In this document: in pieces, positions 358 to 1,624 of the stretch
Position numbering within the stretch: the stretch's first letter is position 1
Layout of the letters: every line of letters begins with the position of its first letter
IMG/VR virus record: IMGVR_UViG_2778261247_000012
Source of the DNA: a virus
Taxonomy: Duplodnaviria; Heunggongvirae; Uroviricota; Caudoviricetes
DNA length: 17,270 nucleotides
Strand: one strand, 5' to 3'
Program-made: the position numbers and the translations under genes
Notes under the pieces: generated by a model
Database searches by the model: none
Told to the model about the DNA's origin: nothing
Seen by the model: the letters and a program-made list of their open reading frames with translations, nothing else

Positions 358-1624
358 ATGTGCCCCCAAATGAAGCTCAATGCCAGACAGGTCGAAACCG
401 CAAAGCCAAAAGAAAAAACCTACAAAATGGCCGATGGCGGCGGTTTGTATCTTGAGGTTTCGGCCAAGGGTTCCAAATACTGGCGTATGAAATACAGACG
501 CCCCTCTGACAAAAAAGAGGATCGCCTTGCTTTTGGTGTTTGGCCTACTGTGACGCTTGCTCAGGCAAGAGCAAAGCGCGATGAAGCTAAAAAGCTCTTA
601 GTGCAGGGTATAGATCCGAAAACTGAACAGAAACAAGCTCACGCCGAAAATTCGGGGGCATATACTTTCGAAACCATTGCTCGTGAATGGCATGCCAGCA
701 ACAAGCGATGGAGCGAAGACCATCGATCGCGCGTTCTTCGATACCTTGAGCTTTATATCTTCCCTCATATTGGTTCGTCCGATATTCGTCTACTCAAAAC
801 CAAGCCACCTGTTAGCCCCAATTAAAAAAGTTGACGCCAGTGGAAAACACGACGTCGCTCAGCGCCTGCAACAGCGTGTAACGGCCATTATGCGTTATGC
901 TGTACAAAACGATTACATCGACTCAAATCCGGCCAGTGATATGGCTGGTGCGTTATCTACAACCAAAGTGCGACATTACCCTGCGTTACCTTCCAGCCGG
1001 TTACCTGAGTTTCTTTCACGTCTCGCTGCATATCGTGGTCGTGTAATGACACGGATCGCAGTCGAGCTCTCCTTACTGACTTTTGTGCGTTCCAGTGAGT
1101 TACGTTTCGCGCGTTGGAATGAGTTCGACTTCGATAAAGCCCTTTGGCGCGTACCTGCAAAACGAGAGGAAATTAAGGGGGTGCGTTACTCGTATCGTGG
1201 TATGAAGATGAAAGAGGAGCATATTGTTCCGCTTAGTCGTCAGGCGATGAATTTGTTAGGCCAGTTAAAGCAGATTAGTGGTGATAGGAAACTGCTTTTC
1301 CCTGGCGATCATGACGCAACTAAGGTTATGAGTGAAAACACAGTAAACAACGCATTGCGTGCGATGGGATATGACACTAAAACCGAAGTCTGTGGGCATG
1401 GGTTTAGGACGATGGCTCGAGGGGCATTAGGGGAGTCGGGTTTGTGGAGTGATGATGCTATTGAGCGTCAATTGAGTCACTCAGAGCGTAATAATGTGCG
1501 TGCAGCTTATATCCATACTTCTGAGCATTTGGATGAACGTCGTTTAATGATGCAGTGGTGGGCAGATTATATAGATCATAATAAGATTATGTATACAACT
1601 CCGTTTGATTTTGCAAAAAAATAA
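358..1624 (+). pseudogene. int: P4-family tyrosine integrase, disrupted by a +1 frameshift near 775-780
   Basis: Two overlapping ORFs in the track (358-825 in frame 1, 677-1624 in frame 2). The first gives the integrase N-terminal arm domain (KLNARQVETAKPKEKTYKMADGGGLYLEV...). The second gives the catalytic domain (...HIVPLSRQAMNLL..., ...GHGFRTMARG..., ...RQLSHSERNNVRAAYIHT...). The join maps to GGTTCGTCCGATATTC, consistent with a single-base indel. Confidence 0.8.

Follow-up and report, generated by a model that had tools for sequence, protein, structure and literature searches.

The integrase gene (int) of a P4-type satellite residing in leuX carries a single extra A that splits it over two reading frames. 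We consider it very likely that this represents a genuine and young loss of the gene, with a single origin and vertical inheritance thereafter, at an early stage of ordinary decay. In the proposed course of events, one A would have been inserted at int codon 145, and the mutation would have arisen once, in an avian-pathogenic clone of Escherichia coli, after that clone had split from a lineage resembling PMV-1 and FEX669; it would have been passed on vertically ever since. The frameshift would then be the first step in the ordinary decay of a resident satellite, and not a device that preserves its cargo.

The satellite and its split integrase gene

We analyzed a window of 17,270 nucleotides (the whole stretch of DNA considered here), in which leuX is followed by a near-P4 satellite with a split int. 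The features are ordered along the window as follows:

122..206, plus strand: leuX, tRNA-Leu(CAA), called by ARAGORN
187-206: attL, the last 20 nt of leuX, an exact copy of the P4 attP core GAGTCCGGCCTTCGGCACCA (match to P4 X05947/NC_001609)
319..368: arm-type binding repeats for Int (TGGGGGCA motifs), 5' of and overlapping the int start (sequence compared with the repeat_region features of P4)
370..825 (upstream start at 358), plus strand: 5' part of int in frame 1, 151 aa (ORF; 'frameshifted' pseudogene 370-1624 in RefSeq)
801..802, plus strand: the lesion, AA where intact alleles show a single A (alignments with KL53 and PMV-1)
803..1624 (ORF 677-1624), plus strand: 3' part of int in frame 2, with the second half of the central domain and the catalytic domain
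1700..4174, minus strand: hotspot cargo, a TIR-NLR anti-phage gene of 824 aa, undamaged in the window (PADLOC, Pfam TIR_2)
4328..4346, minus strand: cos, the cohesive-end 19-mer of P2/P4, exact
4511-5083, minus strand: psu (RefSeq annotation, Pfam Psu)
5157-5657, minus strand: delta (RefSeq annotation, Pfam Ogr_Delta)
5654-6388, minus strand: sid (RefSeq annotation)
6941..7207, plus strand: vis/alpA, 88 aa, the P4 excisionase and regulator, undamaged (Pfam Phage_AlpA, E 7.3e-21)
7751-8038, plus strand: epsilon (match to PF25738 Derepression)
8031-8486, plus strand: orf151
8622-8942, plus strand: orf106/DUF5375
8957-11290, plus strand: alpha primase-helicase, 777 aa, undamaged (Zn_Ribbon_Prim, Toprim, D5_N, Pox_D5)
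11345..11645, plus strand: crr, two direct repeats of roughly 120 bp, needed in cis for P4 replication (repeat search; P4 crr annotation)
11762..11857, plus strand: attR, with arm repeats at 11762-11790 and the core at 11839-11857, GAGTCCGGCCTTCG-CACCA

Between positions 200 and 11900, the window is 96.4% identical to phage P4 at the nucleotide level over 75% of the length, the unmatched quarter being the cargo. The arm repeats at 319-368 are the same as those annotated at P4 attP, the P4 end junction aligns to positions 4319-4546 at 96%, and the cos 19-mer found no match in 200 shuffles. The genes psu, delta and sid, which form the capsid-hijack and transactivation operon, stand in P4 order at 96-97% nucleotide identity to P4, and ORF88 of P4 is annotated as excisionase. 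This nucleotide identity, the leuX call by ARAGORN and the match of the att core agree with the original prediction of a satellite in leuX and identify it as P4-type. Of the P4-like core set of de Sousa & Rocha (int, psu, delta, sid, alpA/vis, epsilon and alpha), all but int are present in undamaged form, as is a cos of the P2-helper type, and the att sites bound an element of about 11.6 kb. Where the P4-like set calls for an undamaged int next to an att site, int here adjoins attL but is frameshifted at 801/802. The element is a defective member of the P4-like satellites, not a non-member. Judged from its sequence, int is the sole broken part of its mobility machinery, with attL, attR, cos, psu, delta, sid, vis, epsilon, alpha and crr all present.

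Two ORFs overlap on the plus strand: one in frame 1 (358/370-825), ended by a TAA stop at 823-825, and one in frame 2 (677-1624). That this stop truncates the frame-1 product had been predicted correctly. The resulting 151 aa comprise the arm DNA-binding domain, the first half of the central domain and an out-of-frame tail, KPPVSPN; in Pfam terms, they match Arm-DNA-bind_3 (E 1.3e-27) and positions 1-46 of the 96 in the Phage_int_M profile. The frame-2 product matches positions 48-96 of the same profile, followed by Phage_integrase (E 2.6e-17). In other words, the arm-binding, core-binding and catalytic domains are split over two frames instead of being joined in one polypeptide, with Phage_int_M cut at 46/48. 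A split integrase of this kind is far above chance expectation.

The one-base frameshift itself was confirmed by comparison with undamaged alleles, which had been proposed as a check: KL53 and PMV-1 both show a single A at the site, and both halves of int are otherwise undamaged. Positions 100-1700 of the window differ from the KL53 allele by two substitutions and one extra A at 801/802, and from PMV-1, which has a near-identical island, the extra A is the only difference in int, the frame-2 part being identical. The insertion converts AAAACC-AGCC into AAAACCAAGCC (CCAGCC into CCAAGCC) and causes a +1 frameshift at codon 145. The location of the join had been predicted less precisely. It had been placed at GGTTCGTCCGATATTC (770-785), which merely lies within the zone open in both frames, where gene callers begin the downstream ORF at TTG 770; the break is found 16-31 nt downstream, at 801/802, still inside the predicted interval of 745-830. 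Likewise, Pfam agrees with the arm domain in frame 1 and the catalytic domain in frame 2, but the break bisects the central core-binding domain and does not fall at an arm/catalytic boundary. Removal of the A yields one ORF of 417 aa with all three Pfam domains (roughly 420 aa had been predicted), and over 410 residues this restored Int shares 94% identity with P4 Int. The catalytic motif of the tyrosine recombinase family is HxxR ... H ... Y; the frame-2 part has kept HxxR ... SH ... Y as HGFRTMA ... LSHSE ... AAYIH, which aligns identically with P4 Int.

Some further variation was observed elsewhere in the window. Positions 7159-7758 hold one ORF of 199 aa, which RefSeq splits into an 'ash family' pseudogene and an Icd-like protein of 65 aa; strains 2D and KL53 have a 196-aa Icd-like gene in its place; ash pseudogenes are typical of P4-like satellites (PMC13586616). 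Beyond attR, a 682-aa protein without a PADLOC match (12535-14583, plus strand) and a phosphorothioated-DNA-binding HNH restriction endonuclease (15206-16135, minus strand; PADLOC HNH E 9e-25, weak mREase_IV) may form a small defence islet in the adjoining chromosome.

Authenticity and distribution of the extra A

The original prediction had allowed for a sequencing error at this site. Using a 61-bp probe centred on the site, we searched 5426 complete E. coli genomes and found its context in 58, three of which carry the extra A (IMT5155, from chicken; DE17, from duck, China; VTB96815v, from chicken, South Africa; three countries in total) and 55 of which do not. In each of these three genomes, int is labelled "frameshifted" by RefSeq. 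DE17 and VTB96815v match the window at 100% identity along all 17,270 bp, and IMT5155 differs from this sequence only at four homopolymer runs. In addition, the exact 151-aa product ending in KPPVSPN was found on 41 contigs in NCBI, ENA and Logan (24 of 46 index blocks were read for this figure), and on seven more with the upstream start; ten of the truncated-product loci were fetched and checked. An assembly error that hides an undamaged int could appeal to IMT5155, which was isolated in 2000 and sequenced by 454 and Sanger (PMC4232414), and whose four homopolymer differences from the other two genomes may themselves be errors, so that this assembly may hold indel errors. The extra A, however, lies outside any homopolymer run (a single A becoming AA), and since it is reproduced identically in three independent complete assemblies, as well as in assemblies of many separate public read sets (the 41 contigs), we take such an error to be refuted.

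Several other disruptions were considered and set aside. The frameshifts of IMT5155 in the TIR-NLR gene (3662) and alpha (10610) were not taken as further decay, being homopolymer-length changes in a 454 assembly that are possibly artefactual. An int frameshift in EC7072022BGR (L034, NZ_OY856299.1, 3001-4253; human urine) was left uncounted as an independent event for a base rate, its assembly being doubtful; its int is annotated as frameshifted and its TIR-NLR gene is interrupted by a stop and by an indel, which points to decay of the entire element or to indel errors in the assembly. Other truncated int products, 143-162 aa long, formed an apparent cluster that we did not accept as a mutational hotspot, given that clustering at 90% identity favours fragments of similar length and that several are partial at contig ends. 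One truncated product (ending in IKKS) fits a +1 change in an A6 run at 824-829 of another allele. Homopolymer length also varies between otherwise identical islands, at window positions 1637 (T7/T8), 11632 (A8/A9) and 12612 (T8/T7), the last of which alters the annotated start and length of the 12535-14583 ORF (2037 nt in DE17, 1764 nt in IMT5155 and PMV-1).

The carriers of the extra A share one chromosomal background. Over 45 kb upstream of leuX, there are no substitutions among IMT5155, DE17 and VTB96815v, and 13 for PMV-1; IMT5155 belongs to ST140 within ST complex 95, O2:K1:H5 (PMC12928451). Seven contigs with the extra A extend into the chromosome, and every one of them shows the DE17 flank, differing from it at 0-1 positions over as much as 7.3 kb; among all carriers seen, the allele was observed in this background only. 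The same or nearly the same flank accompanies an undamaged int in PMV-1, FEX669 and one gut-metagenome contig, which by this comparison represent the ancestral state. For the undamaged 417-aa allele, the segment from int to TIR-NLR shows 0-2 substitutions in 3.8 kb and adjoins at least seven ahr-leuX flank haplotypes that differ pairwise by 16-73 substitutions per 1453 bp. A near-identical intact element beside such diverged flanks argues that the element with an undamaged int has moved between lineages recently. One intact-int copy (L023; GCA_012204605.1, AARYKK010000003.1, 1-5000) is preceded not by the ahr-leuX chromosome but by a CP4-type island with DUF932, antirestriction, RadC and CbtA/CbeA toxin-antitoxin genes, which points to islands arranged in tandem at leuX or to insertion in a second context.

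The distribution also bears on whether the split could be functional. Positions 677-825 are open in both frames, with a CCC-AAU-UAA stretch before the frame-1 stop, and gene callers report a 284-aa C-terminal ORF from TTG 770; Int could conceivably still be made by +1 ribosomal frameshifting in this overlap or by assembly of the fragments, in which case the frameshift would be regulatory. We regard this as highly improbable. A slippery motif or stimulator is not known there, the break cuts Phage_int_M in two, and the TTG start lacks evident support. Moreover, P4 and 55 of the 58 genomes with the context have a single ORF, and the split is therefore derived and limited to one clone.

Mobility of the satellite and state of its cargo

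Integration and excision of P4 both require Int, and excision also requires Vis, the excisionase (PMC7286903). Translation from the ATG at 370 would give the 151-aa product, which keeps the arm-binding domain but would end halfway through the core-binding domain, with no part of the catalytic domain. Because P4 excision depends on Int and the frame-1 product is without a catalytic domain, we infer that self-driven excision should be lost; with Vis undamaged and Int lost, the element would no longer be capable of excising or re-integrating unaided. That the frameshifted copy is immobilised is plausible and consistent with the population data: one background for the allele with the extra A against at least seven for the undamaged allele fits the pattern expected of a locked element, without being proof of it, as a young allele would be confined to its clone even if the element were still mobile.

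The element could also still be mobilised by Int supplied in trans, either from a paralogous integrase of the P4 family or from a superinfecting undamaged satellite. We consider this unlikely, though it has several points in its favour. The sites and partners on which Int would act or depend (attL, attR, the arm repeats, vis and cos) are undamaged, identical satellites with an undamaged int circulate widely in E. coli, and distant blastn found four int-like places in DE17 and in IMT5155 and three in VTB96815v. Cross-talk between integrases of P4-like islands has reportedly been seen in UPEC 536. The three further int-like sequences in each of DE17 and IMT5155 are, however, about 60-80% identical at the nucleotide level, and megablast found no second int copy in DE17, i.e., no paralog above about 85% nucleotide identity. 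Tyrosine integrases usually require their own arm and core sites, and the confinement of the extra A to one chromosomal background likewise speaks against mobilisation in trans.

The attR core (11839-11857) is one G short compared with attL and P4 attP, and this deletion was considered as a second, independent lock. That idea was rejected, as the same form of attR accompanies undamaged-int copies in two downstream contexts: that of PMV-1, and the different one of 2D, KFu014 and M172-1. Because it is shared with these copies, the G-short attR is a property of the satellite lineage that is compatible with spread, which suggests either that the attP core of this lineage is 19 nt long or that strand exchange takes place to the right of GG. 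A search for the excised or circular attP (pattern ATGTTTGAGTCCGGCCTTCG N{0,1} CACCATT) gave 0 matches in viral contigs and 0 in metagenome contigs.

The original prediction had proposed that a locked satellite would turn its cargo into a stable chromosomal trait. TIR-NLR systems consist of one polypeptide that begins with a TIR domain, has a STAND NTPase at its centre and ends in TPR repeats (PMC9122126). The protein in the window matches the PADLOC model over positions 1-824 of 824 (1878.7 bits), with Pfam TIR_2 at residues 5-99; by these matches it counts as a TIR-NLR, the STAND and TPR parts being scored only within the whole-length PADLOC match. Within the clone that carries the extra A, DE17 and VTB96815v have the gene undamaged, as do three of the read sets shown and five similar places. 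C595T (Q199*) was seen in three of the read sets shown and in eight similar places, +AA in an A7 tract (gene positions 596-602) in another read set, and -A in an A9 tract (gene positions 505-513) in IMT5155, the last possibly a 454 error. The TIR-NLR has been knocked out at least twice independently within this clone, and it is inactivated in roughly half of the clone samples examined. Among the undamaged-int places shown, nine out of ten have the full 824-aa TIR-NLR, and L023 has +A in the same A7 tract. Given the Q199*, +2 and -1 (IMT5155) changes within the clone, the expected stability of the cargo is not supported. A lock is also unnecessary for retention, since the sister strains PMV-1 and FEX669 keep the island at leuX with an undamaged int. 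The pattern is that of ordinary decay of a resident element, not of preservation.

The knock-outs are concentrated at two poly-A tracts that closely follow the TIR domain (window 3573-3580 and 3662-3670 on the minus strand, i.e., gene positions 595-602 and 505-513), with poly-A-tract events coming from at least three independent samples or backgrounds. These tracts could be a mutational hotspot or a contingency switch.

These observations weigh on the suggestion of adaptive domestication, in which the lock was selected because it fixed the TIR-NLR in the host chromosome. This idea builds on the stable cargo of the original prediction, and we hold it to be very improbable. The clone is widespread, spanning three countries and at least 25 years. 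The TIR-NLR blocks P2 and so lowers P4 transduction, which would make mobility costly for the cargo already (Rousset et al., PMC9122126), and it has been suggested that defence genes might become stabilised in defective P4s (PMC13586616). Against this stand the inactivation of the TIR-NLR in roughly half of the clone samples by at least two independent events, its undamaged state in nine of the ten undamaged-int places shown, and the retention of the island at the same site by sister strains with an undamaged int; besides, one mutation in one clone is indistinguishable from drift or hitch-hiking.

Ordinary decay, the reading we prefer, may have gone along with relaxed or conflicting selection on int and cargo. 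Conflicting selection is plausible because the TIR-NLR blocks P2 and because IMT5155 harbours a P2-family prophage, GI-18, alongside the P4-family island, GI-13 (PMC4232414). A more elaborate version would link both losses to a conflict between the satellite, its helper and a helper-killing cargo: excision would have been disabled first, the TIR-NLR would then have been turned off repeatedly through a poly-A contingency switch (505-513 and 596-602), and the 151-aa fragment might sit on the arm sites of att or on the int promoter, impeding satellites that arrive at leuX. We think it very unlikely that events went this way.

Relation to known satellites

The kind of element described here is already known: the int pseudogene is marked in RefSeq, defective P4-like satellites with retained defence genes have been described (PMC13586616), and the genome paper of IMT5155 had already called the island a P4-family phage (PMC4232414). 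The value of our result goes little past bookkeeping, in that annotators can be told that the pseudogene is genuine and marks one clone (whose typed member, IMT5155, is ST140). Nevertheless, PMV-1 and FEX669 on the one hand and DE17, VTB96815v and IMT5155 with the extra A on the other, with their near-identical islands and chromosomes, offer a natural pair for the effect of Int loss on the mobility of P4-like elements, and the comparison indicates that immobilisation of a satellite alone does not preserve its defence cargo.

The closest relative considered is satellite phage P4 itself (NC_001609 / X51522), which shares the leuX site, the 96.4% nucleotide identity extending over int, cos, psu, delta, sid, vis, epsilon, alpha, crr and att. 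Shared as well are the 20-bp att core at attL, the arm repeats and the cos 19-mer, and the restored Int is 94% identical. The element differs from P4 in having the TIR-NLR in place of the non-essential gop-beta-cII region, a +1 frameshift in int and an attR core that is one G short.

With the P4-like defence-hotspot satellites (Rousset et al. 2022, PMC9122126; de Sousa & Rocha 2022, PMC8628076), it has in common that the cargo lies between int and psu, next to cos, and the TIR-NLR is among the validated systems of this hotspot (PMC9122126). In the protein-based census of de Sousa & Rocha (PMC8628076), the frameshifted copy would count as an element without int, i.e., Type B, and the intact form (PMV-1 and others) has all seven of their components. 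Like the defective P4/P2 elements reported recently (PMC13586616, NAR 2026), the window copy combines a mobility pseudogene with a neighbouring defence gene identical to that of intact elements. At least one pseudogene is found in 94% of P4-like satellites (PMC13586616). The window copy differs from those elements in standing at the earliest possible stage, with one lesion only, and in that the defence gene is also decaying in sublineages here, whereas that study found defence pseudogenes to be rare.

Finally, the cryptic leuX element of E. coli K-12, intB/KpLE2, also has a P4-family integrase pseudogene next to leuX, and a remnant of this kind directly follows attR in strains 2D, KFu014 and M172-1. 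KpLE2 is an old and heavily eroded island; compared with it, the element analyzed here is still a whole P4, damaged by one recent lesion only.
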